A stretch of DNA of 64,000 bases from a bacterium (GCA_021373255.1 JAJFTD010000100.1:24636-88635), one strand, 5' to 3'. Positions 19,592 through 47,668 are shown, numbered from the stretch's first letter. The notes: generated from the letters alone by a model not told the origin. A program made the numbers and translations.

Positions 19592-19650
19592 ATCGTAGAA
19601 GGCAGGCAGCCGTGTGGGTCAGCCCCAGTCACTATTGGAGCAGCCATAAA

Positions 19651-22005
19651 ATGAATTTCTGGCATGTAGTAAGAGTAGTACAGGCACGGAAGTGGATAAT
19701 AATTGGACTTGTAGCGGCTACGTTTCTCACAATCGTCATCGCTGCTCCAAAACCTCGTGTTGTCTACAATGCATCGGTATACATGTCTCCGACGGAACAG
19801 GTCATGCAGGGTGGAACAACCACCACTGCGGAAGCCGGCAATCAGTCCGCCGCTCCTAATCGCAACGTCATCCTGAGCAACTTGATCATTCTTGCACAGG
19901 GTGGTGAGGTTTACCAAAGAGCGATGGATTTCCTCGCTTTATCTGTCGATGAACAGCGACGGAAAGTTCGGGAGAACATGGGCACTGATCTCCCCAGCTA
20001 CCAGCAGATACCTCGTATAGAGGTAGAAGCTGGGAAGATGCTCACATACCAGGATTGGCAAGAAGTGCTCGAAGTGACTCCTGTGCAGAATCAGACAGTT
20101 GGGGAGACGGGCACAACTACCGATATTATTTGTATTACCGTAAAACTGACCAACGGCACGATTGCGCCATATGTGGCCAACGCAGTAGGTGAAGCGTTCT
20201 CTGAGCTGTATCAGGACAAGAGCCGCGAAGATATTCGAAAGTACTCCAAGTTCCTTCTTGCAAGTGAAAACGAAGCCAAGGACGACCTGAAAAAGGTACA
20301 GCAGCAGATTGCCGCATATCGCAGTGACCACAACATGACCGCTGCCACAGGCGAATCTGACGGCACATTATCGCTACTTACTGCTGCTATGGCTGCAAAG
20401 AGTGAAGCTGATGCTGCTGCCGGTGAGGCACAGGCAGCGCTTAATGATGTAAACGCACAGTTAGCCGCTCAGCCGCTTGTGCGCAGGCAAAAGTTACCTG
20501 CCGAGATGAACCCTGTTGTCAAAAAACTTCAGGAGCAGCTATTAGAGGCTGAGGCGGATTTGAAAGACTTGTCCCAACGCTACAAACCGGCTCATGAGAA
20601 ATACAAAGAAGCTGCGGCAAAGGTTGCATATCTGCAAGGTCAGATAACCAAGAATGGTGCGAATTATTCTCTTCCTGAGATCAACCAGATTCACCAGGAT
20701 CTGCTGAAGAAACACTCCGATGCACAGTATGCCCTTGCTACTACTGTGGCCAGACGGAGCGCTGCCGCCGCCAGTTTGGCGCAGGTTCAGCAGAAGATGA
20801 AGAACATCGCCCAGTCAGAACCGGCGCTTCAGGAACTGCTTACCGAATACTCCCAGGCCGAAGCGCGTTATAAGATGCTTTCGGACAAATACGCCCAGGC
20901 TGTTATAGCGGAAAAGGAGTTCACCCGAACGGGGTCTATACTTCCATTTGATTGGGCACGTGATGGGATTAAGCCGACAGTGGAAGGTCCATCGCGAAAG
21001 ACGCTTCTTGTCTACGGGTTAATATTGTCTCTGATCATTGGTGTAGTTGTGGCTGTGTGGCTTGATTCCATAGATCCCAGGCTGCATGGACCGGGCGATG
21101 TGGAGAAACTTCTCGAATTGCCCATTATCGGGGTCACGCCGCAGTTGCCCGGCAAGAACGGCATGCTGCCCAAGTTAACTCACATCTACCCGCTTTCAGC
21201 AATGGCGGAGTCGTATAAGATCCTTAGAACTAACTTACTATTTGAACTGCGTGATAAGCCGTTCAAAACATTAATGGTCGCCACCGGCCGCCCAGGCCAG
21301 GGCGCTACTACCACCATTTGTAACGTGGCTATCGCTCTTGCTCAGATAGGTAAAAAGATTATACTGATAGACGCCGACATGCGACGCCCCAGCCTGCATA
21401 AGTTCTTTGGCGTCGCTAATGAAGCTGGTCTGAGCACGCTGCTGCGTGGAGATGGCACGCTTACGGATGCCTTCCAGAAAACAGATGTCGAAAACCTGAT
21501 TGTGGTTCCTGCAGGCCCGCAACCGCTGAACCCGTCTGAGCTCCTGGGTTCCGACCGCATGCAGGATCTGGTAAAGCGACTTGAAGAACACTGTGATCTG
21601 GTACTATTTGACTCGCCGAGCACGGTTGTGTTCAGTGATGGGCCTATGCTCGCAAGTTGGGTAGACGCAGTATTAATGGTTGTCTCAGCTAACCAGGCAC
21701 CGAGCGGCACCGAAGTTAAAACACGTGAGCTACTCAAGAAAGCCAGGGCAAACGTGATCGGTGTTGTGGTTAACAAAATGCTGCTCGATGACGTCGACAG
21801 TTGCAGATACTACTCTCATTACTATGCCGATTCGGCTCCGCAGACTCCAGATGCTGCTCTTGAATCGGGCAACGAGCATAATGGTAATGGCTCAGGCAAA
21901 AAGATCGCTCCACCTAAAGCCAAGGCCATACCGGCGACCGCAGAGGCAACCAAGCCGGATGCCGATGCAGAGACTGCCGGTGACGACAATCCTTTCCCTG
22001 ATTGA
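19651..22005 (+). CDS. Polysaccharide co-polymerase (Wzz/GumC-like chain-length determinant) fused to a BY-kinase-like P-loop domain with C-terminal Tyr cluster; Walker A is degenerate
   Basis: Two TM helices flank a long coiled-coil periplasmic region. The ATPase domain has Walker A' IILIDADMRRP and Walker B LVLFDSPS, but Walker A reads GRPGQGATTT, with no Lys. The Tyr cluster is CRYYSHYYAD. Start at the ATG at 19651 (ggag Shine-Dalgarno); the ORF is open from 19612. Confidence 0.8.
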   Translation: MNFWHVVRVVQARKWIIIGLVAATFLTIVIAAPKPRVVYNASVYMSPTEQVMQGGTTTTAEAGNQSAAPNRNVILSNLIILAQGGEVYQRAMDFLALSVDEQRRKVRENMGTDLPSYQQIPRIEVEAGKMLTYQDWQEVLEVTPVQNQTVGETGTTTDIICITVKLTNGTIAPYVANAVGEAFSELYQDKSREDIRKYSKFLLASENEAKDDLKKVQQQIAAYRSDHNMTAATGESDGTLSLLTAAMAAKSEADAAAGEAQAALNDVNAQLAAQPLVRRQKLPAEMNPVVKKLQEQLLEAEADLKDLSQRYKPAHEKYKEAAAKVAYLQGQITKNGANYSLPEINQIHQDLLKKHSDAQYALATTVARRSAAAASLAQVQQKMKNIAQSEPALQELLTEYSQAEARYKMLSDKYAQAVIAEKEFTRTGSILPFDWARDGIKPTVEGPSRKTLLVYGLILSLIIGVVVAVWLDSIDPRLHGPGDVEKLLELPIIGVTPQLPGKNGMLPKLTHIYPLSAMAESYKILRTNLLFELRDKPFKTLMVATGRPGQGATTTICNVAIALAQIGKKIILIDADMRRPSLHKFFGVANEAGLSTLLRGDGTLTDAFQKTDVENLIVVPAGPQPLNPSELLGSDRMQDLVKRLEEHCDLVLFDSPSTVVFSDGPMLASWVDAVLMVVSANQAPSGTEVKTRELLKKARANVIGVVVNKMLLDDVDSCRYYSHYYADSAPQTPDAALESGNEHNGNGSGKKIAPPKAKAIPATAEATKPDADAETAGDDNPFPD

Positions 22006-22865
22006 TTGGCATAGCAATGAAGCAACTAACAGTTGATGAACCTATACTGCATCGGGTAGAAGACGAATGGCCGGAGGAGCGCGAACCGGGGGCGTTAGCA
22101 ACACTGTGGCAGCATCGTGAGCTTGTATACAGCCTTGTTCTACGCGACATAAGATCTCGCTACAAGCAATCAGCATTGGGAATTGCATGGGCGTTAGTTC
22201 AGCCGCTTGCTATGACCGCTGTGTTCACTGTGGTAATGGCGGCTATAATTAAAGTGCCGACAGGTAACGTTCCATACCCAATGTTTGCCTATGTCGCCAT
22301 GCTTCCCTGGACATTCTTTGCCACCGCTCTCACCAGCGGAACTGAATGCCTGGTAAGTAACTTCAACTTAATTACAAAAGTATATTTCCCCCGAGAGACA
22401 TTCCCGATCGCAGCCGTGCTTGGAAAGACTGTCGATTTGGGGCTGGGCGTGCTCGTCTTGATACCGTTCTTTTGGATATATCACATCCACGTTACATGGA
22501 TGGCGCTGTATATAGTTCCAATTCTCCTGATCCAGATATCGTTTCTTCTGGGCCTTACGTTCATATTCTCTGCAGTTAACCTGTTCTACAGGGATATAAG
22601 GCACGTAATGCCGCTGCTCATGCAAGTATGGATGTATTTAACGCCGGTCATCTACGGCCTCGACCTTGTGCCTAAACGATACTACAGCATATATATGCTA
22701 AATCCAATGACGCCCATTATCGATGGTTGCCGTAAAACCATACTTCAGGGACAAGCGCCGTTATGGAATTACTTAAGCTATGCAGCAATTGTATCCATTG
22801 TGACGCTGGTTGCAGGTTACTGGCTCTTTAAGAAACTGGAGCCGAAGTTTGCGGAGACTATATAA
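22002..22865 (+). CDS. ABC-2 type polysaccharide exporter permease (Wzm/TagG/KpsM-like)
   Basis: 287 aa with 6 TM helices. ...LRDIRSRYKQSALGIAWALVQPL... is the ABC-2 signature. TTG start overlaps the upstream stop; an alternative ATG is at 22017. Confidence 0.8.
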   Translation: MIGIAMKQLTVDEPILHRVEDEWPEEREPGALATLWQHRELVYSLVLRDIRSRYKQSALGIAWALVQPLAMTAVFTVVMAAIIKVPTGNVPYPMFAYVAMLPWTFFATALTSGTECLVSNFNLITKVYFPRETFPIAAVLGKTVDLGLGVLVLIPFFWIYHIHVTWMALYIVPILLIQISFLLGLTFIFSAVNLFYRDIRHVMPLLMQVWMYLTPVIYGLDLVPKRYYSIYMLNPMTPIIDGCRKTILQGQAPLWNYLSYAAIVSIVTLVAGYWLFKKLEPKFAETI

Positions 22866-23036: not shown

Positions 23037-24233
23037 ATGAAAGTCATCTCTGCAGAAAATGTATCAAAGAGATTTGTGCTCTCTCACGCGCGGTCGCGAA
23101 ACCTCGCCGATGCCGCGCGCGGTTTTTTGCGTCGTACTCCGCGTGATGACTTTTGGGCGCTCAAGGATGTGTGTTTTGATGTGGAGCAGGGCGAGGCGCT
23201 GGGGATCATCGGCCACAATGGCGCAGGCAAGAGCACTATGCTCAAGCTCCTCACTAAGATAATGAAGCCGACACAAGGCAGAATACGCACCAGGGGCAGG
23301 ATATCGGCGCTGATCGAAGTGGGAGCTGGTTTTCACCCCGAAATGACCGGACGTGAAAACATCTATCTAAACGGCTCAATCCTGGGCATGACCCGGCGCG
23401 AGATAGATAGTAAATTTGATGAGATAGTGTCATTCGCAGAGCTGGAAAGATTCATCGATACCCCGGTGAAGCGATATTCCAGCGGTATGTATGCCCGCCT
23501 GGGTTTCTCTGTGGCTGCGCATGTAAAGCCAGATATTCTGGTTGTAGATGAAGTTCTTTCTGTTGGAGATGCACTGTTCCAGAATCGGTGCGCTGTCAGA
23601 ATGCGTCAGATAAAGGAAAATGGCGCAACTATTGTTTTTGTGTCTCACAATCTCAATGCGGTAACTGACATATGTGATCGTGCAATCGGTCTTTCTCATG
23701 GTGAAGTGTTCGTGGATGATATTCCTTCTAAAGCCATCGGTAAGTATCGTGAGCTTATATCAAATGAAACGCCGATCCCTCCTGGACTTACCTGTTCTGA
23801 ACTGGGAGCGGATGATTCGCCGTTTATCATTACTAGTGTAGAGTCTTCGTCTCCAAGTAGGGAAGAGTGGAGCGCCTATATGGATGAAGATTGGACTATA
23901 CGCATTAACTATGCTGCTAAAGAGGTAATACACGAGCCCGAGATTATTGTATCTATAAAAAATAGTGATGGGCTGAGCGTTTTCCAACCGTGCAACATAG
24001 ATTATGGCGCTGCACGAGATGTGTCTGGTAGTGGAACCATCGAGTTCAGAGCAGAGAAGTTGAGCCTGCTTCCCGGGCGATACTCAGTGGAAGTTCTTGC
24101 CTGGCCCTATGACTGCGGCCGTCACTGGTATGACCTGCTTGTGCGCCCATCACGAAGTAATATAGTCGGACCGGGTATTCGCTATGGAGTTGCGAAGATA
24201 CAAGGGCAGTGGGTGTGGCTGGACAATACATAG
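23037..24233 (+). CDS. ABC transporter ATP-binding protein Wzt/TagH-like with C-terminal carbohydrate-binding (Wzt_C-like) domain
   Basis: Walker A is GHNGAGKST, the signature motif is [11 protein letters not shown], and Walker B is ILVVDE. An approximately 150-aa beta-rich C-terminal extension is typical of Wzt C-terminal domains that recognise a capped glycan terminus. Confidence 0.8.
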
Positions 24234-24262: not shown

Positions 24263-25201
24263 ATGTTAATTGTCGTTTCTGGCAGAGTAAGCATTATTAT
24301 ACCGGCATATAACAGCTCAGCGTATCTATGCGAGGCCATTGATAGCGCCTTGGGGCAGACACACAGTGACGTCGAAGTCGTTGTGGTAAATGATGGCTCA
24401 ACAGACGATACCGACTCCATTATAGAGAGCCGGTATATGGACCGCATAACTTATATCCAACAGCCCAACGCAGGTCTCAGCGCCGCCAGAAACGCGGGCA
24501 TACTTGCCTCCACTGGTGAGTTCATTTCCTTTCTCGATGCTGATGATAGAATACTCCCCGAGATGGCCGAGAATCTGTCAAATAAGCTGGCTGACCACCA
24601 GGAATGCGGACTGGCATACGGTGGATGGTATCAAATCAATCAGACCGGCGAGCGGTATGGGGAATCAGATCTAGATAATGCGCCATCAGGCAGGGTCTTT
24701 CATGAGTTATTCAAGCGAGGACTGTTTGAAGTTGGCACGCTAATGCTGAGGCGAAGCATCTTGGCTAAGAGCGGCTTATTCGACCCCGCGCTCCCACAGC
24801 TTGAGGACAGAGACATGTGGATGCGGGTTGCATTTTATGCCGATTTTATAAGTGTGCCGGTCCATGTAGCTGAAATCAGAAGCGTCACAAACAGCATGTC
24901 CAGGAATTGGGCACAGAGAAAAGTGGCAAATGACCTGCTTGTCCGTAAGATGCACACGTTCCTGAGGTCGAAAGGCCAACCGCTGTCGCTGCTCACTCAT
25001 CTGCGCCGCAACTTGAACCGGCATTACCCCGCACAGTGCGTTCAAGATGCGTTCAAAAGTTATTGGGCTGCGGACTACTCTACGGCGTGGCGCAAGATGC
25101 TGAGGGGTGTTATAGCTTCACCCGGATATTTACGTAATCGAGGGGTATGGGCGGTATTGGTGAAGTCGGTTATGCGAGGCGGGATGAATAATGGCTCCTG
25201 A
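24263..25201 (+). CDS. Family 2 glycosyltransferase
   Basis: IIIPAYNSSAYLCEAIDSALGQTHSDVEVVVVNDGSTDDT with a DAD (DxD) motif, in a GT-A fold. Confidence 0.8.
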   Translation: MLIVVSGRVSIIIPAYNSSAYLCEAIDSALGQTHSDVEVVVVNDGSTDDTDSIIESRYMDRITYIQQPNAGLSAARNAGILASTGEFISFLDADDRILPEMAENLSNKLADHQECGLAYGGWYQINQTGERYGESDLDNAPSGRVFHELFKRGLFEVGTLMLRRSILAKSGLFDPALPQLEDRDMWMRVAFYADFISVPVHVAEIRSVTNSMSRNWAQRKVANDLLVRKMHTFLRSKGQPLSLLTHLRRNLNRHYPAQCVQDAFKSYWAADYSTAWRKMLRGVIASPGYLRNRGVWAVLVKSVMRGGMNNGS

Positions 25202-26522
25202 CACACTCGGCAAATCAAAATCTCTGCGCATAGTCCATGTTGTTCCCAACTTCATACCCGAAGGGCATGGTGGACTGGAGCGGCATGTTTCTTCCATTTC
25301 ACGAGAAATGTCCGCGCGGCACGACGTGTACGTAATCGCGTTCACAAACAATCTTGAGCTTATCGAGCACAACACCACCAGGCAAGGTGATGTAAAGGTC
25401 ATTTGGCTCCAGAAACGGCAGAATATAGGTGATATGATGCCACCCGAGTGTCCGGAACTCGACGCTCGGCTCCGTGAAGCGATCACATCCATCGCTCCCG
25501 ATGTAGTTCACATCCATTATCTCGCCGGGTTGAGCACGGGTATTGTGGGTGTCGCCAAAGATGTTGCCCGTGCAGTACTAATCACCTTGCACGACTATGC
25601 CAGCCTGTGCCCCGGCGACACTATCGACTGTGCAGGAAAGCTCTGTTTCTCTCCGGGAACTAGGTGCCTGAGTTGCCTCCATCCGTCACAATTTTCGCGA
25701 AAACGGCTCATGGGCTATTGGCGTATAACGAACCCTGCTATGATCCTTTTCTCTCGCGTTTTTGGCAACTGGCCGATGGCAAAGGTTATCGCTGATTTGT
25801 CTACGCGAAAAACAGTGCACTTCAAGGCGCTGGAGCAGGCGAATGTTATTATTGCGCCGTCTCACGCCATTGCTGATGTGTTCATTGGTGCAGGACTTGC
25901 TGCGGAACGAGTGAAGGTTATAACGCACGGGACCGATAAAGTTTTAGGGGTTCCTCACGATAGGCCGCTTCACAACCCTCTGAGGTTTGGCTTCATTGGA
26001 AGCAACAGGCTCAAAGGCTTTGAACTATTGCATCGCGCATACGGAAAGATAGCTGATAATCGAACAGAGCTTCACGTGTTTGGCAATCAGTATTACCCAG
26101 CGAGTAGTCGCACAAATAGCTGGATAAAGAAAGTTGGATCGGTTGATCATGGGCGGTTTGACCCGGATGATATCAATCAGGTATACGAGCGGTTTGATAT
26201 GCTGGTTGCACCGTCTATCTGGATAGAACCATTTGGATTAGTGGCGCTCGAAGCTCTAGCGCGTGGTGTTCCGGTGATCGCTACTAATCGAGGTGGTTTT
26301 ACAGAATGCGTTAAGGATGGAGTGAATGGATTGCTATTCGAGCTTGGCGATGTTGAAGAGTTATCACGTGCGTTGCGGCGCTGTGTAGAAGAGCCTGGGT
26401 TAGTGGAACGACTGAAATGCGGTATCGGAACAGTCAAGTCTACAGCAGAGCAGGCCCTGGAGTTAGAAGAACTGTACACACTGTGCCTGGCAATTGATGG
26501 AGATAAAACTTGCAGAGAATAA
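25191..26522 (+). CDS. Family 4 (GT-B) glycosyltransferase
   Basis: C-terminal EPFGLVALEALARGVPVIATNRGGFTECV is the GT4 signature (E-x7-E). Confidence 0.8.
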   Translation: MAPDTLGKSKSLRIVHVVPNFIPEGHGGLERHVSSISREMSARHDVYVIAFTNNLELIEHNTTRQGDVKVIWLQKRQNIGDMMPPECPELDARLREAITSIAPDVVHIHYLAGLSTGIVGVAKDVARAVLITLHDYASLCPGDTIDCAGKLCFSPGTRCLSCLHPSQFSRKRLMGYWRITNPAMILFSRVFGNWPMAKVIADLSTRKTVHFKALEQANVIIAPSHAIADVFIGAGLAAERVKVITHGTDKVLGVPHDRPLHNPLRFGFIGSNRLKGFELLHRAYGKIADNRTELHVFGNQYYPASSRTNSWIKKVGSVDHGRFDPDDINQVYERFDMLVAPSIWIEPFGLVALEALARGVPVIATNRGGFTECVKDGVNGLLFELGDVEELSRALRRCVEEPGLVERLKCGIGTVKSTAEQALELEELYTLCLAIDGDKTCRE

Positions 26523-27274
26523 GCGTAGTCATACACGTCTGCGATGAGGAGCAGTATATAGATGAGTGCTTGAATTCCATTGCCTGGGCAGATGAGATTG
26601 TGATCATCGATATGGGTAGCACGGATTCTACGGTTGCCATGTGTCATGACCGTGGTGCACAAATCTTTACACATCCCCGCGTTCCGGTGGTGGAGTTGGC
26701 GCGTAATTTCGGCATTTCAAAGGCGACTGGTGACTGGATATTGGTGCTCGATCCCGATGAACGAGTGGCTGATATGTCTGGCAAGGAGCTTAGCGAGATC
26801 GCTAATGATCCGGCATCGTGTGATGGTTATTATGTCTCGCGTGTAAACTGGATATTCGGCAAGCGTATAAATCACTCGGGGTGGGGCGATGATCGGCTGT
26901 TGCGGTTCTTCCGGAATAGAAAATGCACATGGCCGAGCAGTGTCCATTCGGTGCCGGTAGTAAACGGTACGGTGGGTACCATAGAGCCCAAGCATTGCTA
27001 TCTGATACACGACAACTATCGCACACTTGAGCAGTTTGTAGAGAAGATGAACAGGTACACATCGCAGGAAGCGCAGCGTTTGTATGATGCCGGGCGGCCT
27101 TTCCACTGGCTGAAACTGTTCTACCAGCCGATGAAAGAGTTCAACAGCCGATACATCAAACATAAAGGCTACCGGGATGGTTTCATTGGCTTCGTGCTTG
27201 CTGTACTGATGGCATTCTACATTCAGCTATCTTATCTGAAGCTCTGGGAAAAGTACGATAATAAGGACAAGTAA
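26510..27274 (+). CDS. Family 2 glycosyltransferase
   Basis: ISVVIHVCDEEQYIDECLNSIAWADEIVIIDMGSTDST and a DPDE motif. Confidence 0.75.
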   Translation: MQRISVVIHVCDEEQYIDECLNSIAWADEIVIIDMGSTDSTVAMCHDRGAQIFTHPRVPVVELARNFGISKATGDWILVLDPDERVADMSGKELSEIANDPASCDGYYVSRVNWIFGKRINHSGWGDDRLLRFFRNRKCTWPSSVHSVPVVNGTVGTIEPKHCYLIHDNYRTLEQFVEKMNRYTSQEAQRLYDAGRPFHWLKLFYQPMKEFNSRYIKHKGYRDGFIGFVLAVLMAFYIQLSYLKLWEKYDNKDK

Positions 27275-28207
27275 ATGTGTGCTATACGGTGCAATGTCGA
27301 CATCCTAATACCATCGTTCAATGGCCGCAAACTACTGGGTTCTGTACTAACACATCTTCCCGATATCATTGGGTCTGAGCATAGGATTACAGTAGTAGAC
27401 GACGCCAGCACCGACGATAGCGTCGATTTTGTCAGCAGTAAATACCCTGAGGTCCAACTGATTACTCGCAAGATAAACGGCGGTTTTGCTGCGGCAGTCA
27501 ATGAAGGTATCAGGGCTACGCAGGGAGAATACATCCTGCTGCTGAATAGCGATGTAGAACTTACAGCCGAAATCTTAGACAATATTATCCCAGTTTTCTC
27601 CGACCCTAATGTGTTTGCTGTAAGCCCGAAAATTACTATCCCACAACGTGGCGGTATAGATGAGGGGTGTAAGACCGGATTCTGGCACCATGGCATGTTC
27701 TACGCTGACCAAAGACAAGGTGTGACATCCCAGACTCCCATACTATATGCTACAGGTTGTGCGGCTGTGTATCGTCGTTCAATGCTCGAAGCGTTGGGAG
27801 GGTTCGATGAGGCGTATTCTCCATTCTACTGGGAAGATGCTGATCTCGGCTACAGGGCATGGAAGCGGGGATGGAAAACGATCTACCAGCCCGAAAGTGT
27901 CGCCATCCATCAGCACTCATCAACGATATCCACCCTGGACAGGCGATTCACCGACAAGATAAAATCACGTAACGCGCTGTTATTCATCTGGCGCAATATA
28001 GAAGACCGCGATATACTTGCCGTCCATCAGAAGTGGCTGCCCCTGGTCATTGCGAAGAAAGCGATGCAACGAGATATGAGCTTTGTTGCGGGTTACAAAG
28101 AAGCTCGAAAAATGTGTATCGAAGCATTGGCTGCGCGAGATAATGACTCGCAGCAGCGGACGATGACCGATCGCGAGATATTTGAGATATGTGAGATTGC
28201 CTGCTAA
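27275..28207 (+). CDS. Family 2 glycosyltransferase
   Basis: DILIPSFNGRKLL...VVDDASTDDS and an NSDV (DxD-like) motif. Confidence 0.8.
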   Translation: MCAIRCNVDILIPSFNGRKLLGSVLTHLPDIIGSEHRITVVDDASTDDSVDFVSSKYPEVQLITRKINGGFAAAVNEGIRATQGEYILLLNSDVELTAEILDNIIPVFSDPNVFAVSPKITIPQRGGIDEGCKTGFWHHGMFYADQRQGVTSQTPILYATGCAAVYRRSMLEALGGFDEAYSPFYWEDADLGYRAWKRGWKTIYQPESVAIHQHSSTISTLDRRFTDKIKSRNALLFIWRNIEDRDILAVHQKWLPLVIAKKAMQRDMSFVAGYKEARKMCIEALAARDNDSQQRTMTDREIFEICEIAC

Positions 28208-32720: not shown

Positions 32721-32761
32721 TGGTGCGATGTTTGCATAATCAAGTATTCACTGATGATTAT

Positions 32762-35872: not shown

Positions 35873-35929
35873 TCCGATAATTTGTGTATTGATGTGAAGA
35901 GGGATAAGGGGAGGGTACATTCGGCCACT

Positions 35930-38468: not shown

Positions 38469-40043
38469 ATGACAAATAAGACTGATAACAAAACCGCACC
38501 AGAATGCTGCAAGAAACACCATGTCTCACGAGCTGATAAACTAAAGCTGCTCTGCGTAGGTGTGCTGTTTATTGCCGTTTATGCGCCGACATTTGTTTAT
38601 CTGTGGAACCGCTGGTTGCATGATTCGCAATACTCATTAGCGTTCCTGGTGCCGTTCGTTTCGGGATATTTTATCTGGAGATTGTGGAAACAAGCCACTT
38701 CAACGCGAGTGGATGCATCACCGTGGGGGCTTGGCCTTATTATTGCAGCGCTGTTGATGCATTTTGTGGGGACTCTTTTGGATGTTGCTGTGATCTCAGG
38801 GATGTCCATACTTGTGTTACTTCTTGGTGTATGTCTACACTTCAGGGGCTCGGGGTTCACGAAAGTTCTATGGTTCCCGTTAGCATATACTGTGTTCATG
38901 GTGCCGATTCCTGAGGGGATCATAGATCTCGTAGGGTTCCCAATGCAGCTATGGGCGAGCATGTCGACAGAAAAGCTGTTGAATTTAATAGGTTTGGAAG
39001 TATTTCGCGAGGGGGTCAGGCTGGTTGTCGGCAGCTTCGACTTCCAAGTGGCAGCGGCGTGCAGCGGCATGAGTTCGCTGGTTGCACTGGTCGGGGTAAC
39101 CGCTGTGTTTGCCTATATGACGAAGCTGCCAGCATGGCTTAAATGGGTGTTGTTTTTCCTCTCGTTACCTATTGCATTGATAGCCAATGTCGTGAGAATA
39201 ACCACAATTGCGCTGGTCGGCTATCGATGGGGCGCTGATGTTGCCATGAATATGTATCACGACTGGTCTAGCCCGATGCTCTTTATGGTGGCGATATTGC
39301 TGCTGGCGCTGATAAGTAGGGGATTTGAATATCTGGCTGGAGCTATTTGCCATAATAAGATGCCGCAGGCAGTAGAGCAGGATTCCGTCTTATCACAAAC
39401 AACAAGGATTCGATCACCCAAATATGCGATAGTTCTCGTGTTGATGGCTGTGATGTGTGCGGCACTATACTGGGTGCGGGAAAAGCCTGCGCAGGTAATC
39501 TTTTCTCCTAACCTGGAGGAATTTCCCTCGGTTGTTCAACAATGGAATGCGACCGAAGTCCCCATTACCCACACTGTTAGAAAGCTGTTGAACGCGGACA
39601 ATGTGCTATCTCGGTTATATATGAAATCCGAATACGGTAACCAGGTGGGCCTGCTGGTGGTTTATCGTAAGTATGGCAGGAGAGACTTTATCCACCGACC
39701 GGAGCTATGCTATCCCGCCGCTGGTTGGCAAATTGTAGAAACCGGCACTGCAACTGTTCCTTATGATGGCAAGAACATCACGGCTACAAAAGTTGTTGCA
39801 GAAAAGAATGGAGCGCGTGAGGTTATTCTCTACTGGTTCACGTCAGGCGACCGTGTAGAGCACAATTTCCTTACCCAACAGTTCAGAATGGCGATGGACA
39901 GGTTCCAATCACAGAGATACGGGTGGGCGTTCATTAGGATCAATAGCCCTGTAATAAGCAGTGACAATGAAACTATGGGAAATATGCGTAGTTTTACGCG
40001 TTCCATCTCTAAACCGCTAACCAATACCCTTAGATCGCCTTAG
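38469..40043 (+). CDS. Exosortase (XrtA-like) fused to a C-terminal EpsI-family domain
   Basis: Eight TM helices. The active-site region AACSGMSSL and the conserved Arg in NVVRITTIALVGYRWG are present. The C-terminal ~200 aa (...LLVVYRKYGRRDFIHRPELCYPAAGWQI...) is an EpsI-type periplasmic domain. Confidence 0.75.
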   Translation: MTNKTDNKTAPECCKKHHVSRADKLKLLCVGVLFIAVYAPTFVYLWNRWLHDSQYSLAFLVPFVSGYFIWRLWKQATSTRVDASPWGLGLIIAALLMHFVGTLLDVAVISGMSILVLLLGVCLHFRGSGFTKVLWFPLAYTVFMVPIPEGIIDLVGFPMQLWASMSTEKLLNLIGLEVFREGVRLVVGSFDFQVAAACSGMSSLVALVGVTAVFAYMTKLPAWLKWVLFFLSLPIALIANVVRITTIALVGYRWGADVAMNMYHDWSSPMLFMVAILLLALISRGFEYLAGAICHNKMPQAVEQDSVLSQTTRIRSPKYAIVLVLMAVMCAALYWVREKPAQVIFSPNLEEFPSVVQQWNATEVPITHTVRKLLNADNVLSRLYMKSEYGNQVGLLVVYRKYGRRDFIHRPELCYPAAGWQIVETGTATVPYDGKNITATKVVAEKNGAREVILYWFTSGDRVEHNFLTQQFRMAMDRFQSQRYGWAFIRINSPVISSDNETMGNMRSFTRSISKPLTNTLRSP

Positions 40044-40069
40044 TGTTCCGATACGAGCGAGGAGAAAAC

Positions 40070-41278
40070 TTGTCCAAAAGCCGTAAAATATTGTTTCTGG
40101 CTCATCTTTTCCCGCTCCCGCTGGACTCGGGTGGGAAGATCAAGTCATTTCACACGCTGAAGATACTATCTTCAATGCATGATGTAGCAGTGCTGGCATA
40201 TGTCAGAAACCAGGACGAGATGCAGAGACTGGATGAGCTGCGGCATGTATGCTCGAGTGTAACTATCGTTTCGCTCGTTCGAGGGAAGTTCAGGAACGTT
40301 GCTGACCTTACCAGCAGCCTTATCTCCCGGAAGTCATTTATTGTGTCTCGTGATTATAGGCGTGAAATGCAGGAAGCATTCACACGGTTAGTGGGCGATT
40401 TCCAGCCAGATGTAGTGCATATCGACCACCTGCAGATGGCGCAGTTTGTAGATTTCAATGCATCATATCGCACAGTCCTCGACAATCATAATGTCGAGTG
40501 CATGATCATCAAACGTATCGCTGAGTCATCAAAGAGTACAATGGAGCGGATGTGTGCATCCATCGAATGGCCGAAATTGCGTGCTTATGAACTCGATGCT
40601 TGTCGTCGCTGCGATGCTGTGCTTACCGTCAGTGAAGAAGACAAAGCGACACTTCAGGAATTCAACCAGTCGCTGGCGAACATACACACTGTGCCCATTG
40701 GAGTCGACACCGACTACTTCGCGAGCGTGGAGCGCGTTAATAACTCGAAAAATATAATCTCTATCGGGACCATGTACTGGCCTCCAAATATCGACTCGAT
40801 GTTGTATTTCTATCGCGAGATATTGCCATTGGTAAAGCGCGAGGTACCGGATTGCACACTCACAATAATAGGACAGCGCCCTGCAGCCGCTATTAAAAAA
40901 CTAGAGTCTGATCCGGCGGTCAAGGTAACTGGAACGGTAGATGATGTCCGCGAGCCGGCGCGAGATTGTGGGGCGTTTGTGGTCCCATTACGATCAGGCA
41001 GCGGAGTGCGGGTGAAAATACTTAACGCATTTGCTATGGGCCTTCCGGTGGTATCAACAACAGTCGGTGTCGAGGGGATTACGGCGAAACATGGTGAGCA
41101 CTTGATGATTGCCGATAGCCCAGCGGATTTCTCGCGTTGTGTGGCGCAGGTGCTTAAAGACCCCTGGCTTGCCGAAAAGTTAGGGAATAACGGGCGTAAA
41201 CTGGTCGCCGAGTCGTATTCCTGGCAGAAAGTTGGGGAACGACTCCTGAATGTCTATGAACTAATGGCTGATAAATGA
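40070..41278 (+). CDS. GT4 glycosyltransferase of the PEP-CTERM/exosortase-associated type
   Basis: ILFLAHLFPLPLDSGGKIKSFHTLK is the N-terminus. The C-terminal motif is GSGVRVKILNAFAMGLPVVST. A strong gaggag Shine-Dalgarno precedes the TTG at 40070; the ORF is open from a GTG at 40043. Confidence 0.7.
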   Translation: MSKSRKILFLAHLFPLPLDSGGKIKSFHTLKILSSMHDVAVLAYVRNQDEMQRLDELRHVCSSVTIVSLVRGKFRNVADLTSSLISRKSFIVSRDYRREMQEAFTRLVGDFQPDVVHIDHLQMAQFVDFNASYRTVLDNHNVECMIIKRIAESSKSTMERMCASIEWPKLRAYELDACRRCDAVLTVSEEDKATLQEFNQSLANIHTVPIGVDTDYFASVERVNNSKNIISIGTMYWPPNIDSMLYFYREILPLVKREVPDCTLTIIGQRPAAAIKKLESDPAVKVTGTVDDVREPARDCGAFVVPLRSGSGVRVKILNAFAMGLPVVSTTVGVEGITAKHGEHLMIADSPADFSRCVAQVLKDPWLAEKLGNNGRKLVAESYSWQKVGERLLNVYELMADK

Positions 41279-42480
41279 GGATTCTATTCATAGTCCCATA
41301 CGTGCCGTCCCGGATCAGAATTCGCCCATTCGCGCTGATCAGGGAGCTTTCGCGGAATCACGAAGTGCACATAATTGCGCTCGCTGAACCTGGCTCTGCC
41401 AAGCACCCAGGCGTTGATGAGCTTCCGGGTATGGTAGAGGAACTCACGATAATCCCACACAGCAGCATTCGCGGATATGCTCAATCGCTCCTTGCCTTAG
41501 CTTCACCCACGCCAATGTGCGCAGCATACTGCTGGTCGGCATCAATGAAGAACGCGGTTGAAAAAGCACTCACATCCAGCCATTTCGATATCATTCACGT
41601 TGAACACCTTCGCGCAGCTCACTTCGTGCCACTAAATACAAAAATACCGGTGGTGTTCGATTCGGTGGATTGCCTCACGGGGCTATTCAGACAGATGTAT
41701 TCATCAAAGCGCAATCCCCTGGGAAAGCTGGTTGCTCTGGAGGAGTATCTGAAACTCAGAAGATACGAGCCAGTGCTTATAAGACGCTTTAATCACACTA
41801 TCATAACATCAGAATCTGAGAAGAAAGAAATGGCTGCGCTTTACCCTGATGGAACCGTGAGTGTCGTCCCAAATGGAGTCGACACAGATTATTTTACCCC
41901 CATAGGCCACAACAGGCACCCGCACAGGATGGTCTTCAGCGGAAAAATGAGTTATCACCCAAACGCGCAGGCTGTTATTTGGTTCGCTGAAAGTGTATTC
42001 CCAGCAATAAAGACGAAGTTCACTGATGCTGAGTTTGTTATTGTGGGCAGCAATCCGCCACCAGCAGTTCAGCGGCTCGCGCAGATACAGGGTATCACCG
42101 TGACCGGACGTGTCGAGGATATACGACCGTATCTGGACTCTTCATCAATTGCCGCAGCGCCTATGCGGGTGGGGGTGGGGGTTCAAAATAAAGTGCTGGA
42201 AGCCATGGCAATGCAACTGCCTGTCGTGGCAAGCCCAATAGCAGTTAGGCCGTTTGGGAAAAATTGCCCCGGCATTGTGGCGGCTGAAACTGTCAGTGAA
42301 ACAGCGGCTTCGATAATACAATTAATGGCTCATCCCGAAGAGGCTGTGGATGTAGGAATCCGTGGCCGAACGCATGTAGTAGAAAATTACTCCTGGTGTT
42401 GCAGCGAGCGAATGCTGATTGAGATCTATGCTGACCTTTGCGATAGGGCTAATTCCGGGACAGGGAGGAATGATGGATAA
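41275..42480 (+). CDS. GT4 glycosyltransferase (tandem paralog of the previous gene)
   Basis: MRILFIVPYVPSRIRIRPFALIRELS...GVGVQNKVLEAMAMQLPVVAS. ATGA overlap with the upstream stop. Confidence 0.8.
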   Translation: MRILFIVPYVPSRIRIRPFALIRELSRNHEVHIIALAEPGSAKHPGVDELPGMVEELTIIPHSSIRGYAQSLLALASPTPMCAAYCWSASMKNAVEKALTSSHFDIIHVEHLRAAHFVPLNTKIPVVFDSVDCLTGLFRQMYSSKRNPLGKLVALEEYLKLRRYEPVLIRRFNHTIITSESEKKEMAALYPDGTVSVVPNGVDTDYFTPIGHNRHPHRMVFSGKMSYHPNAQAVIWFAESVFPAIKTKFTDAEFVIVGSNPPPAVQRLAQIQGITVTGRVEDIRPYLDSSSIAAAPMRVGVGVQNKVLEAMAMQLPVVASPIAVRPFGKNCPGIVAAETVSETAASIIQLMAHPEEAVDVGIRGRTHVVENYSWCCSERMLIEIYADLCDRANSGTGRNDG

Positions 42481-44271: not shown

Positions 44272-44820
44272 CTATTTCCTGCGGAGCTTGAGCAATCCAC
44301 CCGCCGTGCACAGACCTACAAATCCGAGCATAACTGTTGAGGCTTCCGGCACTACACCGGGCGTTTCAACGCAGTCCCATGTGACTATGTACGAGCTGTC
44401 GCGAGCAATGTGGCTTGCAAGATCAACATCCGGCAGATCAGTCAGGAATCTAAATGTTGCCGTAGTGTTGCTGAGACCACTAAATTCCCACGTTGCATGC
44501 CACTTTGACTCGATTACATCATGGTGTACACCATTGAACTCATAATCCCAATAGTGGCCGGATGTCAGTGAGCCAGAATCCGCACCCTTGGTATCGTCTA
44601 CAACTAGACCCACACTAAACTGGTGGACCCAGTTGTCTCTAGGTAATGTGGGTACGGTGAGCGTATAAATCCATTCCCAATCAGAGCCAACCTGATTGCG
44701 TGTGATTTGCAGAATGCTTGCTGGCAGGGAGCCGCTGCTGGTGTAAGGTCCAAAAGCCAAAGCCGGGAGCCCGATAACCAGAACAGCCAGCATGGCAAAC
44801 ATCGGCGTCCATCTTCTCAT
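44272..44820 (-). CDS. PEP-CTERM sorting-domain protein (exosortase substrate)
   Basis: Signal peptide MRRWTPMFAMLAVLVIGLPALA. The C-terminus is VPEASTVMLGFVGLCTAGGLLKLRRK (VPEAS motif + TM + basic tail). Confidence 0.7.
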   Translation of the reverse strand: MRRWTPMFAMLAVLVIGLPALAFGPYTSSGSLPASILQITRNQVGSDWEWIYTLTVPTLPRDNWVHQFSVGLVVDDTKGADSGSLTSGHYWDYEFNGVHHDVIESKWHATWEFSGLSNTTATFRFLTDLPDVDLASHIARDSSYIVTWDCVETPGVVPEASTVMLGFVGLCTAGGLLKLRRK

Positions 44821-45036
44821 ATCCTCATAATCCTCCATGAGCAACAATCGCGTCCATCGGACAGACTCCAGCCCATCGACCCGACGCAATATCTACAGCA
44901 CAAAATGGTGCTGCTTTCTAGCAATCCCAAGTCAAATCTGGGCCCATTACTGATCAATGGCCACAGCACGTGTATACCCAGCAAGCAGGCATAAAAAACA
45001 GAAATGCTAATCTTGTTTTAATAAAAATAGATTTCT

Positions 45037-45558
45037 CTAGTGCTTACGAATCTTGAGAATACCACCGATAGAGCTAAGCCCAAGGAATCCGAGCATAATA
45101 GTGGAAGCCTCCGGCACTACACCAGGGGTCTCAACTTCCGTCCAAGCGACAGAATACTTACCATCCTTTGCACCCATTGCAGCAATGTCTACACCCTGAA
45201 GGTCCGTAAGGAACCGGAATGTCGCAGTGGTGTTGCTAATGGGTGTGAAGTACCACTCCAAACTTTCACCGTTAATGGTGGGGGTGGAATCCAATGTAGT
45301 TCCTGTCACCTGGAAGCCACTATAATGCGACGCGTCGGTGTTCGCTAAGCCAATCAAAAATATATGGACAGGATTAGCATCAATGTTTTGGACGTTAAGT
45401 GTGTAAATCCATTCCCAGTTGGCACCTTGCTGATTGCGAACAACCGACAGCGTGCTGGCTGGGTTACTTCCAACGCTGGTATATGGCCCAAACGCTAACG
45501 CCGCAGAGCTGATCGAAATCGCTGCAAGAACGATTGTTACAAGCAAAAACCTCTTCAT
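45037..45558 (-). CDS. PEP-CTERM sorting-domain protein, paralog of the preceding gene
   Basis: MKRFLLVTIVLAAISISSAALA signal. The shared core reads LAFGPYTSVGSNPAS...NWEWIYTL. The C-terminus is VPEASTIMLGFLGLSSIGGILKIRKH. Confidence 0.7.
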   Translation of the reverse strand: MKRFLLVTIVLAAISISSAALAFGPYTSVGSNPASTLSVVRNQQGANWEWIYTLNVQNIDANPVHIFLIGLANTDASHYSGFQVTGTTLDSTPTINGESLEWYFTPISNTTATFRFLTDLQGVDIAAMGAKDGKYSVAWTEVETPGVVPEASTIMLGFLGLSSIGGILKIRKH

Positions 45559-46037
45559 ATCCAACCTCATTATGCCGAAGCTAAATTGTAGCAACTCCGG
45601 TTATTACCTACCGAACATATAGATACAATATATCTGAGCGAGCAGACTAAGTCAAGAGATGTAACAAAAACCTAGTATTTATTACAGCCTATAGATTAGC
45701 ATCTCGCGACCAATAATGAAGTCAGTGTGAACAATAGCTGCATGACATCGACATCGTGGCCTAATGGGATGTTTGGGGCTGGGTCTATTGATGCATGTAT
45801 GACCATATCGTGGCGTTGGCATAGAGACGCTGTAAACTACAGTTTTCTGCCTCGTAGATATGCGAGTTTTTACGCTCAAAGGATTAGCTCTACCTTGACT
45901 TTGGGTAGCAAGCATGCTATAAGATGCATGAAGATGCTCATGATTGTTCCACGGAAGGACGGTGTCTTGGTGCATATGACACCGCCTCATCCGCGCCATT
46001 CACAAACGGTGTTGGCGAATGGCGTGGTTGATTTGCT

Positions 46038-46874
46038 ATGTTGAGCTCGTGCATTCAGAGGTGGAACGTGGTCGCCAGAGCTTTAAAACTCCTATTATTC
46101 CTCATTCTGGTTCTTCTGGGATCCAGTGCGGTAGCGCTTGCGTCCGCAATTGGCCAATATAACGCCGTGCCTGAAGCATCCGCAACCATACTCGCCCCAA
46201 TGGGGCTTGCTGCGATTATTGCTGCTGAGAAATGGAGGCGGCGAGTCTGCAGGATGCACCAGGGTGTAGGAGCAGCTTATATTATCCTTAAAAGATTAGG
46301 CGATATTATTATGGCGCTTATTCTACTAATGATCGCATCTCCGGCGTTCGCTTTGTTAGCGCTTCTGGTTCGGCTCGATAGCCCGGGCCCGGTGCTTTTC
46401 AAGAGGCGCGTCATCGGTAAGGATGGCAAGAGCTTTGACATGTTCAAGTTTCGTTCTATGGTTGAGGGAGCTGAGCAGATCTTAGAGCAAGATGAAGAGC
46501 TGAAAAGAAATTATTACGTGAAGTGTAAGCTCCATACAGATCCCAGGGTAACTGGTATCGGCATTCTGTTGCGCAAGACCAGCCTGGACGAGCTTCCTCA
46601 GCTTATCAACATATTAATCGGTAACATGACATTCGTCGGACCAAGGCCTATCGCTGCCGACGAAATAGAAAAATATGGACCCGCAATTGACCGATTCGTT
46701 ACGGTTACACCGGGGATCACTGGCCTGTGGCAGACATCAGGCCGGAGTGAGACTTCATACGATATGAGAGTCAGTATGGATATGACCTATATCGAGAAGC
46801 GGTCAATCTTACTCGATATCTGGATCATCCTCTGCACGGTGCCCGCTGTTTTGCTCAAACGAGGAGCTTGTTAG
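46038..46874 (+). CDS. Priming sugar transferase (polyprenyl-phosphate glycosyl-1-phosphate transferase, WbaP/EpsB C-terminal-domain type) with an in-frame N-terminal signal-peptide + PEP-CTERM-like extension
   Basis: The catalytic domain reads DIIMALILLMIASPAFALLALLVRLDSPGPVLFKRRVIGKDGKSFDMFKFRSM...GPRP. The upstream in-frame 70 aa contains a signal-like segment ALKLLLFLILVLLGSSAVALA, then VPEASATILAPMGLAAIIAAEKWRRR. Alternative starts are a GTG at 46068 and an ATG at 46252. Confidence 0.75.
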   Translation: MLSSCIQRWNVVARALKLLLFLILVLLGSSAVALASAIGQYNAVPEASATILAPMGLAAIIAAEKWRRRVCRMHQGVGAAYIILKRLGDIIMALILLMIASPAFALLALLVRLDSPGPVLFKRRVIGKDGKSFDMFKFRSMVEGAEQILEQDEELKRNYYVKCKLHTDPRVTGIGILLRKTSLDELPQLINILIGNMTFVGPRPIAADEIEKYGPAIDRFVTVTPGITGLWQTSGRSETSYDMRVSMDMTYIEKRSILLDIWIILCTVPAVLLKRGAC

Positions 46875-46927
46875 TGGGCAGTCACCCAACGCCCGCAAGT
46901 CGCATGCGGCGAAAGGAGAAGTTTAAC

Positions 46928-47668
46928 ATGAGAAGGTTTATAATGGGGGCAGTATATGCGATCGCGCTTATCTGCGCGTTTGGTATGTGCTCACAGGCAA
47001 ATGCAGCCCGTTACAAATTAACATTGATCAACACCGATGAACATCCACTGCCGTCAGTAATCGGGACCCTTTGGATTGACAAACTCGGTTCATATCAACG
47101 TGTTTACGCAGGTCCTATTTGGCTAAACGTGCTTGATACGCAAACCAACCAATCCGAGGTAGTTCGAATGCTTTGCGTGGACTTGGCTGCAGAGATCAGT
47201 GTTAACCAGACATGGGAAGCCGATATCAGCTACGCGCGGCCGTCAACAGTAGCATCCGACAGCGCATGGGATAAAGCGGTGTGGATGGCTGTAAACAATT
47301 CTGGATGGTATTCACCCAGCGGTTGGCCTACAGGTGACCCTGCTACACAAGATGCTGCAGTCCAGCTCTCTGTATGGGAAGTAATTGCTGATGGCAGCAC
47401 GAATTTTAGTATGGAAAGCGGATCGTTCAATGTCAGTCCTAATCCGTTTGAGGGCGCGAATAGAGAAGAAGTTTTGCAGATAGCTCAGGGATATTTCAAC
47501 TCAGCTAACCCGCCTCAGGGATATGGAAGCAGCTATGCGTGGTATGATGCGACATCAAGCGGTCAAGACCTGCTGTTCATACCAACGGTGCCGGAAATCC
47601 CTGCTGTTGCGCTTGGCTCGATTGGTCTTAGTTTACTTGCTTGCTGGAGATCTCGCAGAAGGAAATAG
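46928..47668 (+). CDS. Secreted protein with variant PEP-CTERM tail (VPEIP)
   Basis: Signal peptide MRRFIMGAVYAIALICAFGMCSQANA. The C-terminus is VPEIPAVALGSIGLSLLACWRSRRRK. Shine-Dalgarno is aaggaga. Confidence 0.6.
   Translation: MRRFIMGAVYAIALICAFGMCSQANAARYKLTLINTDEHPLPSVIGTLWIDKLGSYQRVYAGPIWLNVLDTQTNQSEVVRMLCVDLAAEISVNQTWEADISYARPSTVASDSAWDKAVWMAVNNSGWYSPSGWPTGDPATQDAAVQLSVWEVIADGSTNFSMESGSFNVSPNPFEGANREEVLQIAQGYFNSANPPQGYGSSYAWYDATSSGQDLLFIPTVPEIPAVALGSIGLSLLACWRSRRRK

Follow-up and report, generated by a model that had tools for sequence, protein, structure and literature searches.

A conserved Armatimonadota surface-glycan locus that may join an end-reading ABC exporter to an exosortase system

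We analyzed a 64,000-nucleotide (nt) stretch of bacterial DNA (GCA_021373255.1, JAJFTD010000100.1:24636-88635; here called the window, with positions counted from its first letter), which carries a surface-glycan locus at 19612-47668 between gyrA (16725-19292, minus strand) and ffh/rpsP (47831-49585). A reading of the sequence alone had described this locus as a hybrid that combines an exosortase/PEP-CTERM system with a Wzm/Wzt ATP-binding cassette (ABC) exporter, a Wzc copolymerase, and a Wzy/WaaL-like membrane protein, with no Wzx flippase. Pfam and NCBIfam profile searches located each of the listed parts where that reading had placed it, and the case for a hybrid was strengthened by distant relatives, which keep the order PGT (phosphoglycosyl transferase)-Wzc-Wzm-Wzt-...-Wzy_C-...-exosortase-...-Wza. 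We consider it roughly an even bet (probability of ~0.5) that the locus encodes a single, integrated envelope-glycoconjugate system that Armatimonadota have conserved, as opposed to separate systems that happen to be neighbors. All of the parts belong to known families; their combination is new, is conserved across the phylum, and appears to be undescribed.

The evidence that carries this reading is the recurrence of the arrangement in related loci, which were anchored on exosortase, Wzy_C, and Wzt homologs. The first half of the recurrent order starts with PGT, Wzc, Wzm, and Wzt, after which come a block of variable content (glycosyltransferases plus pyruvyl or acetyl transferases) and then GT2c, GT4b, Wzy_C, and GT2d, where GT2 and GT4 denote glycosyltransferase families. 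The second half continues, at times after an extra GT2, with GT2e, a DUF5060/CLIPPER protein, a further variable block (with WsfD/YfdI among others), exosortase, EpsI, GT4c, GT4d, PMT_2, one or more PEP-CTERM genes, and Wza. This order was seen in GCA_021372295/GCA_039698155, on a 2.4-Mb contig, in loci L007 and L009, and in complete form on the 65-kb contig Ga0633491_0000251, with protein identities to the window of ~35 to 65%. As a proxy for co-location, 16 identical longest-contig sizes were common to the exosortase, Wzy_C, and Wzt match tables. The window departs from the consensus in that its PGT gene lies at the distal end instead of upstream of Wzc. Since the whole arrangement recurs in distant relatives, the hybrid make-up is not an accident of adjacency, and on this comparative evidence the locus is a conserved design in Armatimonadota. 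The synteny comparison proposed in the sequence-only reading returned the same hybrid order in related loci and, in an unrelated exosortase locus, Wzx in place of Wzm/Wzt.

Within the window, the genes from the Wzc gene through the PMT_2-like gene all lie on the plus strand with gaps of -62 to +54 nt (the sole exception being 171 nt), and this near-zero spacing on one strand makes a single transcription unit likely. The G+C content is 0.456 to 0.485 over 22 to 40 kb versus ~0.50 to 0.53 in the flanks. The locus holds one initiator and one exporter.

The initiator carries a sorting-type tag that resembles the tails of the predicted exosortase substrates. The features concerned are as follows:

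46038-46874, plus strand, small PGT (PF02397 Bac_transf, 197 bits) with a PglC-like catalytic domain at residues 81-277
38469-40043, plus strand, exosortase fused to EpsI, a 524-amino-acid (aa) open reading frame (ORF) (PF09721, 201.7 bits, cutoff of 25.7; PF11984/DUF3485, 125.2 bits, cutoff of 26.1)
44272-44889, minus strand, PEP-CTERM-like substrate 1, with a likely start at 44820 and an end consisting of VVPEAS, a helix, and KLRRK
45037-45594, minus strand, PEP-CTERM-like substrate 2, a paralog of substrate 1, ending in VVPEAS, a helix, and KIRKH
46868-47668, plus strand, PEP-CTERM-like substrate 3, ending in TVPEIPA, a helix, and RSRRRK

The PGT had been called a WbaP-type initiator, a label that held for the C-terminal catalytic domain but not for the large polytopic WbaP form. 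TIGR03022 scored 258.7 bits against a cutoff of 403 and aligned at model positions 256-455; the NCBIfam matches on the PGT were confined to the catalytic domain, with no N-terminal four-helix WbaP domain. The N-terminal module of the PGT (residues 17-69, approximately nt 46086-46250) consists of a signal peptide ending in A-S-A, a 6-residue stub, VPEAS (residues 44-48), a helix (residues 49-63), and KWRRR. Two of the locus substrates share exactly this VPEAS motif, and when a hidden Markov model was built from the substrate tails only, the PGT module was the best non-training match among the 531 ORFs of the window (E = 0.004).

The same tagged architecture, namely an AxA site, a stub, VP[ED][AV][SA], a helix, and an RRRR cluster, is kept in L007/L016, L009, L010, L017, P0341, and P0342. 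The stub is ~6 to 8 residues long in these relatives and ~40 in P0342. Tagged PGT ORFs lie at 9962-10777 in L007, 7983-8789 in L009, 1055-1855 in L010, 5642-6421 in L017, 540-1880 in L021, and 10001-10915 in L022. In P0343, a full passenger domain (~190 residues) precedes the tag, and the gene sits between two canonical IPEP-CTERM genes; the similarity of this passenger domain to the substrates of the window is weak (E of ~0.03), and we claim no homology between them. The tag has been kept even though its cargo has dwindled to six residues, which suggests that selection acts on the tag. The tag helix is predicted to run from the outside to the inside, a coherent topology that would place the PGT domain on the cytoplasmic side, its required site of action. 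The simplest reading of these sequences is that the PGT tag docks to the exosortase or is cleaved by it.

A tagged initiator also occurs beside an exosortase outside this group. P0370, from an unrelated lineage, has IPAPEP, a helix, and RSRGRKK in front of its PGT domain, and its gene is immediately followed by exosortase-EpsI-Wza-Wzc-(203 aa)-Wzx; its exosortase and PGT domain are 34% and 48% identical, respectively, to those of the window. This Wzx-type locus, L022 (10001-20915 on a Logan SRR28863569 contig), encodes the tagged PGT, exosortase, EpsI, Wza, a Wzc with a canonical kinase, a 203-aa ORF, Wzx, and glycosyltransferases, and it is a useful, naturally contrasting case for the ABC-type locus of Armatimonadota. 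A search of the available literature returned no description of a tagged PGT, nor of an exosortase with Wzm/Wzt or in Armatimonadota in this arrangement, and Haft 2006 makes no mention of a fusion between a PGT and a sorting tag.

The exosortase passed the models for its family (TIGR02602, 149.6 bits versus a cutoff of 105.6; TIGR04178, 67.7 versus 23) and has the ACSGM, NVVRI, and YHDW motifs. The EpsI domain is fused at residues 322-518 (TIGR02914, 91 bits versus 42.8). The sequence-only reading had named this protein an XrtA-EpsI exosortase; the exosortase and EpsI assignments stood, but the XrtA label did not, as TIGR03109 scored 161.7 bits against a cutoff of 208. The XrtW (257.5 versus 425) and XrtD (255.5 versus 400) models scored higher yet were also under their cutoffs. 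The nearest relatives are Armatimonadota exosortases, mostly of ~290 aa with a separate EpsI gene; the two genes are adjacent in most of these relatives and overlap by ~30 nt where gene calls are listed. The exosortase-EpsI fusion is rare, being found in the window, in one 50%-identical relative (P0002; L001 9615-11177), and in the distant L015 (21429 onwards).

In a six-frame scan of the window, exactly three ORFs ended in P-E-x, a hydrophobic helix, and a basic cluster. A fourth scan match, at 12985-13242, lacked the look of a sorting tail. The earlier claim of three exosortase substrates thus stood as far as the PEP-type motif-helix-basic anatomy is concerned but did not extend to the PF07589 cutoff, which all three missed (see below). 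From its family, the exosortase-EpsI protein would be expected to process these three VPE-tagged proteins.

The second pillar of the integrated reading is an exporter of the type that reads chain ends, together with a candidate capping enzyme:

22002-22865, plus strand, Wzm, ABC-2 permease (PF01061, 53.9 bits, cutoff of 26.9), with weak matches to Wzm/RfbD and KpsM
23037-24233, plus strand, Wzt, with a nucleotide-binding domain (NBD) at residues 1-240 (ABC_tran, 78.8 bits) and a C-terminal beta-sandwich at residues ~255-398, nt 23799-24233 (Wzt_C, PF14524, 30.9 bits, cutoff of 30.4)
37479-38414, plus strand, Zn-ribbon S-adenosylmethionine-dependent methyltransferase, with CPVC...CASC upstream of a Methyltransf_23 domain (95.9 bits), in a variable island

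Both components of the ABC-2 exporter noticed from the sequence scored above their Pfam cutoffs, and in Wzt the NBD is followed by a Wzt_C domain, as in the Escherichia coli O9a paradigm. The suggested kinship of the C-terminal region with cap-binding domains withstood the comparison made: its marginal Pfam pass was joined by an alignment with full-length Aquifex aeolicus Wzt over residues 31-354 and by the predicted fold. An AlphaFold (AF2) model of Wzt built from 67 sequences (predicted local distance difference test score [pLDDT] of 88.8) has an all-beta domain at residues 263-395. When this model was searched with Foldseek, full-length A. aeolicus WzmWzt (7k2t/8dku) came first (E = 1e-38 over ~397 columns), and NBD-only structures came lower (E = 6e-28 over ~240 columns). 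The C domain of A. aeolicus Wzt, the closest solved relative, binds a 3-O-methyl mannose or rhamnose cap, and every studied Wzt with a carbohydrate-binding domain exports polymers that are finished and terminated in the cytoplasm (PMC9445017).

Compared with 66 homologs, the NBD of Wzt is 57 to 79% identical, whereas the C domain is only 15 to 53% identical, and in several homologs an identity of ~70% is confined to the first 60% of the protein. A conserved NBD joined to a hypervariable C domain is what one would expect of a Wzt that reads chain ends in a serotype-specific manner. Cap reading by the Wzt C domain is therefore plausible. The Zn-ribbon methyltransferase noted at 37479, with its CPVC...CASC cysteines and Methyltransf_23 domain, may tentatively be put forward as the capping enzyme in this genome.

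Two further components would connect this exporter to the outer membrane:

19612-22005, plus strand, Wzc-like protein of the PCP-2a (polysaccharide copolymerase) type (TIGR01007, 165.5 bits, cutoff of 108), with a two-helix chain-length-determinant-like N domain and a bacterial tyrosine kinase (BY-kinase)-like domain
58626-59768, minus strand, Wza-type outer-membrane export protein (Poly_export plus SLBB; TIGR03027 and TIGR03028 below cutoff)

Both had been predicted from the sequence, the Wzc-like protein within the locus and Wza at 58.6 kb, and both were borne out by these matches. The XrtA-associated chain-length and kinase models TIGR03007 and TIGR03018 matched the Wzc-like protein below their cutoffs. 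Its Walker A motif (residues 557-568, nt 21280-21315) reads GRPGQGATTT, with Ala565 where the catalytic lysine belongs, and so lacks the GK[ST] of an active BY-kinase. Walker A' (DADMRRP), Walker B (LVLFDSP), and a tyrosine cluster (Y733/734/737/738) are kept. All four of the distinct Armatimonadota Wzc homologs that were checked (L007, L009, L016, and L017) have a Walker A of GRPGQG[A/G]TTT without the lysine; in the Wzx-type locus L022, Wzc keeps the canonical PGEGKST. Loss of this lysine fits an adaptor role in place of kinase-regulated polymerization, and by analogy with KpsE/KpsD we infer that the Wzc-like protein has shifted to linking the ABC transporter to Wza. The C terminus of the Wzc-like protein (nt 21985-22002) reads DNPFPD, and (D/E)N(P/L)FP(D/E) ends an otherwise low-complexity tail in the window and in four distinct relatives.

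Wza adjoins the PMT_2 gene and the substrate genes in relatives, and here it lies ~11 kb from the locus. The intervening segment (47831-58520) consists of ~11 kb of housekeeping genes (ffh, rpsP, signal peptidase I, and a PAS histidine kinase) between the substrates and Wza. Wza is followed at 60011-62740 and 62858-63853 by large Ig-like (Big_5 and Big_3_5) and dockerin-domain proteins in which no PEP-CTERM tail was seen; the relative L018 (19820 onwards) has a similar Ig_7/dockerin protein after its locus.

Four ORFs in the window have at least six predicted membrane helices: the exosortase, the Wzy_C protein, and the ORFs at 35882 and 42419. The last three are as follows:

29460-30869, plus strand, Wzy_C-family protein (PF04932, 35.2 bits, cutoff of 31.7) with about eight hydropathy-predicted helices
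35882-37468, plus strand, WsfD/YfdI (GtrS-like) hexose transferase (NF051875, 310.5 bits, cutoff of 80, residues 27-379) with 10 predicted helices
42419-44191, plus strand, PMT_2/ArnT-like GT-C protein (PF13231, 22.6 bits, cutoff of 26.1) with nine predicted helices

The absence of a MOP/PST flippase, as first noticed from the sequence, held up throughout the window. The Wzx/MOP models (PF01943, PF13440, PF14667, and PF03023) matched none of its ORFs, even at E ≤ 1 for the polytopic ones, and all four polytopic ORFs were assigned elsewhere. The same models detected Wzx in the unrelated L022, which makes the negative result in the window meaningful. The two ORFs that had been singled out as possible flippases (given as 35930 and 42470) were ruled out as a hidden Wzx: profile searches placed them as WsfD-family and PMT_2-like transferases. 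Thus, the MOP/PST Wzx that marks a Wzx/Wzy-dependent pathway was not found within the window. The WsfD-like gene sits in a variable island, and its homolog in one relative matches PF27133 YfdI_N of the GtrS-like family. The PMT_2-like gene is conserved beside the exosortase, and the PMT_2 match is stronger in relatives, such as the L003 homolog. Searches of PDB sequences with the two proteins gave no significant match.

The Wzy/WaaL-like membrane protein of the sequence-only reading combines a PF04932 domain with a WaaL-like fold, as in the O-antigen ligase/Wzy_C family. Its AF2 model (pLDDT of 85.6) gave a sole significant PDB match with Foldseek, WaaL 7tpg (E = 2.8e-5; template modeling scores of 0.52/0.59), followed by SEDS proteins and no transporter fold. 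No NCBIfam model matched the protein, and a Wzy_C profile searched against PDB sequences gave nothing significant. The protein is 45 to 76% identical across more than 100 clusters, and Wzy polymerases are usually far less conserved than this. Its invariant residues include R328, H372, G383, G386, and H442, of which H372-x10-G383-xx-G386 is similar to the ligase motif of WaaL and PilO/PglL. Because a Wzt with a cap-binding-type domain exports polymers finished in the cytoplasm and the Wzc-like protein looks kinase dead, we favor a ligase-type role for the modeled Wzy_C protein, with either the PEP-CTERM-like proteins or lipid A-core as its putative acceptor. In a distant clade (L015), Wzy_C, glycosyltransferases, PGT, a PMT_2-like gene, and an exosortase-EpsI fusion occur together with no Wzm/Wzt in view, which suggests that the link between Wzy_C and the exosortase is older than the link to the ABC transporter.

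The remaining genes of the locus encode glycosyltransferases and one large protein:

24263-25201, plus strand, GT2a, assigned by Pfam, poorly conserved in relatives
25191-26522, plus strand, GT4a, likewise assigned and variable
26510-27274, plus strand, GT2b, likewise assigned and variable
27275-28207, plus strand, GT2c, assigned by Pfam, conserved (with GT4b, 52 to 58% identity in relatives)
28208-29413, plus strand, GT4b, stp1-like, assigned by Pfam (TIGR03087, 205 bits, cutoff of 316), conserved together with GT2c
30877-31716, plus strand, GT2d, assigned by Pfam, conserved (with GT2e, 48 to 58% identity in relatives)
31761-32720, plus strand, GT2e, assigned by Pfam, conserved together with GT2d
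32720-35872, plus strand, 1,050-aa protein with an N-terminal anchoring helix, a DUF5060 N domain, and a DUF11/CLIPPER C domain (Pfam)
40043-41278, plus strand, first of a pair of stp1-like GT4 enzymes (TIGR03087, 239 bits, cutoff of 316), conserved (with its partner, 54 to 66% identity in relatives)
41275-42480, plus strand, second of the pair (TIGR03087, 284 bits, same cutoff)

The count of five GT2 and four GT4 enzymes made from the sequence was exact, with all nine above their Pfam cutoffs; six are conserved and three are variable among related loci. Homologs of the 1,050-aa protein, which are 1,000 to 1,100 aa long, occur in all related loci, always between the GT2 genes and the exosortase, and ~800 of their residues are without a family match. 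PDB matches to the window protein (9gmj and 4n0r, a "putative glycoside hydrolase") span the DUF5060 region only. From its domains, it is probably a periplasmic glycan-processing enzyme, maybe a glycan hydrolase.

If the parts work together, the pathway might run as follows. The sole PGT, a Bac_transf-family enzyme by profile match, would prime undecaprenyl phosphate, its likely substrate, after which the six conserved and three variable single-domain GT2 and GT4 enzymes would build the glycan on the cytoplasmic face. A terminal modification would complete the glycan, for which the methyltransferase is a tentative candidate here. The hypervariable C domain of Wzt would then recognize the nonreducing end of the chain, and Wzm/Wzt would export it, taking the place of Wzx. 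In the periplasm, the WsfD/GtrS-like and PMT_2-like GT-C enzymes may add sugars from polyprenyl-phosphate donors, and the WaaL-fold Wzy_C protein, more probably as a ligase, would move the undecaprenyl-diphosphate-linked glycan onto its acceptor. The exosortase-EpsI protein would meanwhile process the three VPE-tagged proteins. The lysine-less Wzc-like protein and Wza would provide passage through the envelope, closer to a KpsE/KpsD adaptor pair than to a kinase-regulated polymerase partner. Finally, the PEP-CTERM-like module of the PGT most likely docks the enzyme to the exosortase or makes it a substrate, which would couple initiation to sorting.

A bolder version of this proposal is possible but doubtful: the PGT module would be a true exosortase recognition element, and the locus would represent a distinct, fourth-style route for making sorted surface proteins decorated with glycan, in which Wzx gives way to a cap-reading Wzm/Wzt within a machine composed of Wzc (as a pseudokinase), Wza, Wzy_C, and the exosortase. 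Exosortases were discovered in 2006 through their invariable association with polysaccharide loci, and a recognition element in the PGT would, if real, be the first concrete physical link between them and the polysaccharide genes that accompany them. This "Rosetta-stone" fusion of a sorting tag to a glycan-initiating enzyme, which recurs beside an exosortase in an unrelated lineage, makes a direct coupling between exosortase and glycan testable, and export through an end-reading ABC transporter means that export can be switched off cleanly.

Several observations weigh against the integrated reading. Both PGT and Wza are displaced in the window relative to the usual order of the relatives. With PF07589 (cutoff of 20.7), two of the predicted substrates scored 15.0 to 15.1 bits and the third gave no match, and the PGT module was likewise below curated thresholds. 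The Wzt_C match is marginal, and the C domain alone retrieved only spurious designed Kelch proteins from PDB sequences; since it finds nothing real there by sequence, support for it comes from the Pfam match, the alignment with full-length Wzt, and the predicted structure. A Wzx could be encoded outside the window, whether on the same 143-kb contig or in another part of the genome, and the nine single-domain glycosyltransferases look more like those of a Wzy-type repeat unit than of a processive ABC-type polymer. Some Armatimonadetes genomes carry lipopolysaccharide (LPS) synthesis genes and BamA (PMC5629042), so the Wzy_C protein may simply be WaaL. Lastly, the methyltransferase is absent from L003, L005, L017, and L018, including two relatives in which the complete locus is visible, and methylation could be internal rather than terminal.

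This last point bears on a rival account of the methyltransferase that stands an even chance of being right, namely, that the enzyme does not terminate the chain but methylates an internal sugar or something unrelated, while the Wzt C domain reads some other terminal feature. Its gene is 13 kb from wzt, in the variable island beside the exosortase, and the enzyme is a stand-alone one without the kinase and coiled-coil architecture of WbdD; in related loci, wzt is instead followed immediately by a pyruvyl transferase gene, or acetyltransferases or a member of the sulfatase family are present. Nevertheless, the closest solved Wzt, that of A. aeolicus, reads a 3-O-methyl cap (PMC9445017), and surface-layer (S-layer) glycans are capped by O-methylation (PMC2943079). 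Moreover, the C domains of the two complete-locus relatives without the methyltransferase are only 23 to 38% identical to that of the window, as expected if cap chemistry differs, and this divergence makes their lack of the enzyme neutral for the methyl-cap idea. The four closest C domains (46 to 53% identity) are on contigs that end or break before the methyltransferase region.

We consider it unlikely that two ordinary systems merely lie side by side, with an ABC-dependent LPS O-antigen pathway (Wzm/Wzt, glycosyltransferases, and WaaL) next to an exosortase exopolysaccharide module (Wzc, Wza, and stp1-like GT4 enzymes) whose Wzx and Wzy are elsewhere. Such an explanation would suit the reported LPS genes and BamA (PMC5629042), the finding that WaaL is the only significant structural match of the Wzy_C model, and the NCBI name of that protein (O-antigen ligase family protein), and it draws further support from the distant exosortase locus L015, which has Wzy_C, glycosyltransferases, PGT, and exosortase with no Wzm/Wzt in view. 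However, the single initiator, which lies directly upstream of Wzc-Wzm-Wzt in relatives, itself carries an exosortase-type tag; genes abut or overlap across the supposed boundary; the whole arrangement is kept at ~50 to 65% identity; and the Walker A lysine of Wzc has been lost specifically in these loci.

A Wzy-dependent pathway, in which Wzm/Wzt flips completed repeat units, the Wzy_C protein polymerizes them, and the Wzc-like protein and Wza complete a group 1-like export, is quite improbable: although the nine single-domain glycosyltransferases and modifying enzymes (as in complex repeat units), the presence of PCP-2a and OPX (outer-membrane polysaccharide export) partners, the Wzx in the corresponding role beside Wzc and Wza in the unrelated L022, and the six conserved glycosyltransferases (which make a conserved polymerase possible) would all suit it, a Wzt with a carbohydrate-binding domain exports cytoplasm-finished, terminated polymers in every studied case, the Wzc has lost the lysine needed for the kinase cycle that accompanies Wzy polymerization, and the Wzy_C protein is far more conserved than usual Wzy polymerases.

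Two other observations were made in the window. A proS-ispG-rseP-dxr-uppS cluster (2816-9675, minus strand), which includes an undecaprenyl diphosphate synthase, lies ~10 kb upstream of the glycan locus. The ORF at 13717-14955 has an unusual mix of YukD ubiquitin-like, JAB/MPN deubiquitinase-like, and LysM domains and no relation to the glycan locus.

On the integrated reading, the textbook split between Wzx/Wzy and ABC pathways is mixed in a whole phylum, with Wzc and Wza retained and the Wzc kinase lysine lost, and the locus can be set beside four known systems. For its glycan half, the closest worked-out analog is the S-layer slg pathway (PMC2943079), in which a WbaP-type initiator occurs together with Wzm/Wzt, methyl capping, an oligosaccharyltransferase of the Wzy_C type, and WsfD. 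The slg clusters of Geobacillus stearothermophilus NRS 2004/3a and Paenibacillus alvei have WsaP/WsfP, Wzm/Wzt, the WsaE methyl cap, the WsaB/WsfB Wzy_C oligosaccharyltransferase, and WsfD/WsfH; like them, the locus has an initiator with a WbaP-type catalytic domain (not WecA), Wzm/Wzt, a Wzy_C transferase, a WsfD-family hexose transferase, and a methyltransferase. In contrast, the slg hosts are monoderm Firmicutes with an S-layer protein as the acceptor, and their clusters are without exosortase, PEP-CTERM proteins, Wzc, or Wza. The OPX protein in the window implies an outer membrane, unlike in the slg hosts.

The exporter itself most resembles those of E. coli O9a and A. aeolicus (WzmWzt, 7K2T/8DKU), sharing an ABC-2 permease and a Wzt in which the NBD is followed by a C-terminal jelly-roll domain, and A. 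aeolicus Wzt is its best match in both sequence and structure. The locus differs from these systems in being initiated by a Bac_transf PGT rather than WecA, in having no WbdD-like terminator architecture, and in placing its transporter among Wzc, Wza, and an exosortase.

With the XrtA/PEP-CTERM exopolysaccharide loci (Methylobacillus sp. 12S eps; Haft 2006), the locus has in common an exosortase and EpsI, PEP-CTERM-type substrates, stp1-like GT4 enzymes, a chain-length/kinase-like protein, a Wza-type exporter, and a Bac_transf initiator. However, all of the XrtA-system equivalog models fell below cutoff here, the sorting motif is VPEAS/VPEIP and not VPEP, and the locus has an ABC exporter in the place of Wzx, a Wzc without the Walker A lysine, and a tagged initiator.

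Group 2 capsule export (KpsMT-KpsE-KpsD) offers a possible functional analogy, as it likewise pairs an ABC-2 transporter with a PCP-family adaptor and an OPX protein. The resemblance has its bounds: the match to KpsM is weak (54.8 bits versus a cutoff of 300), the PCP of the locus is of the Wzc (PCP-2a) type, and a Wzy_C protein is present. In addition, the chemistry predicted for the locus is undecaprenyl-diphosphate priming by its PGT, whereas the KpsMT system uses a lyso-phosphatidylglycerol-Kdo (3-deoxy-D-manno-octulosonic acid) linker.

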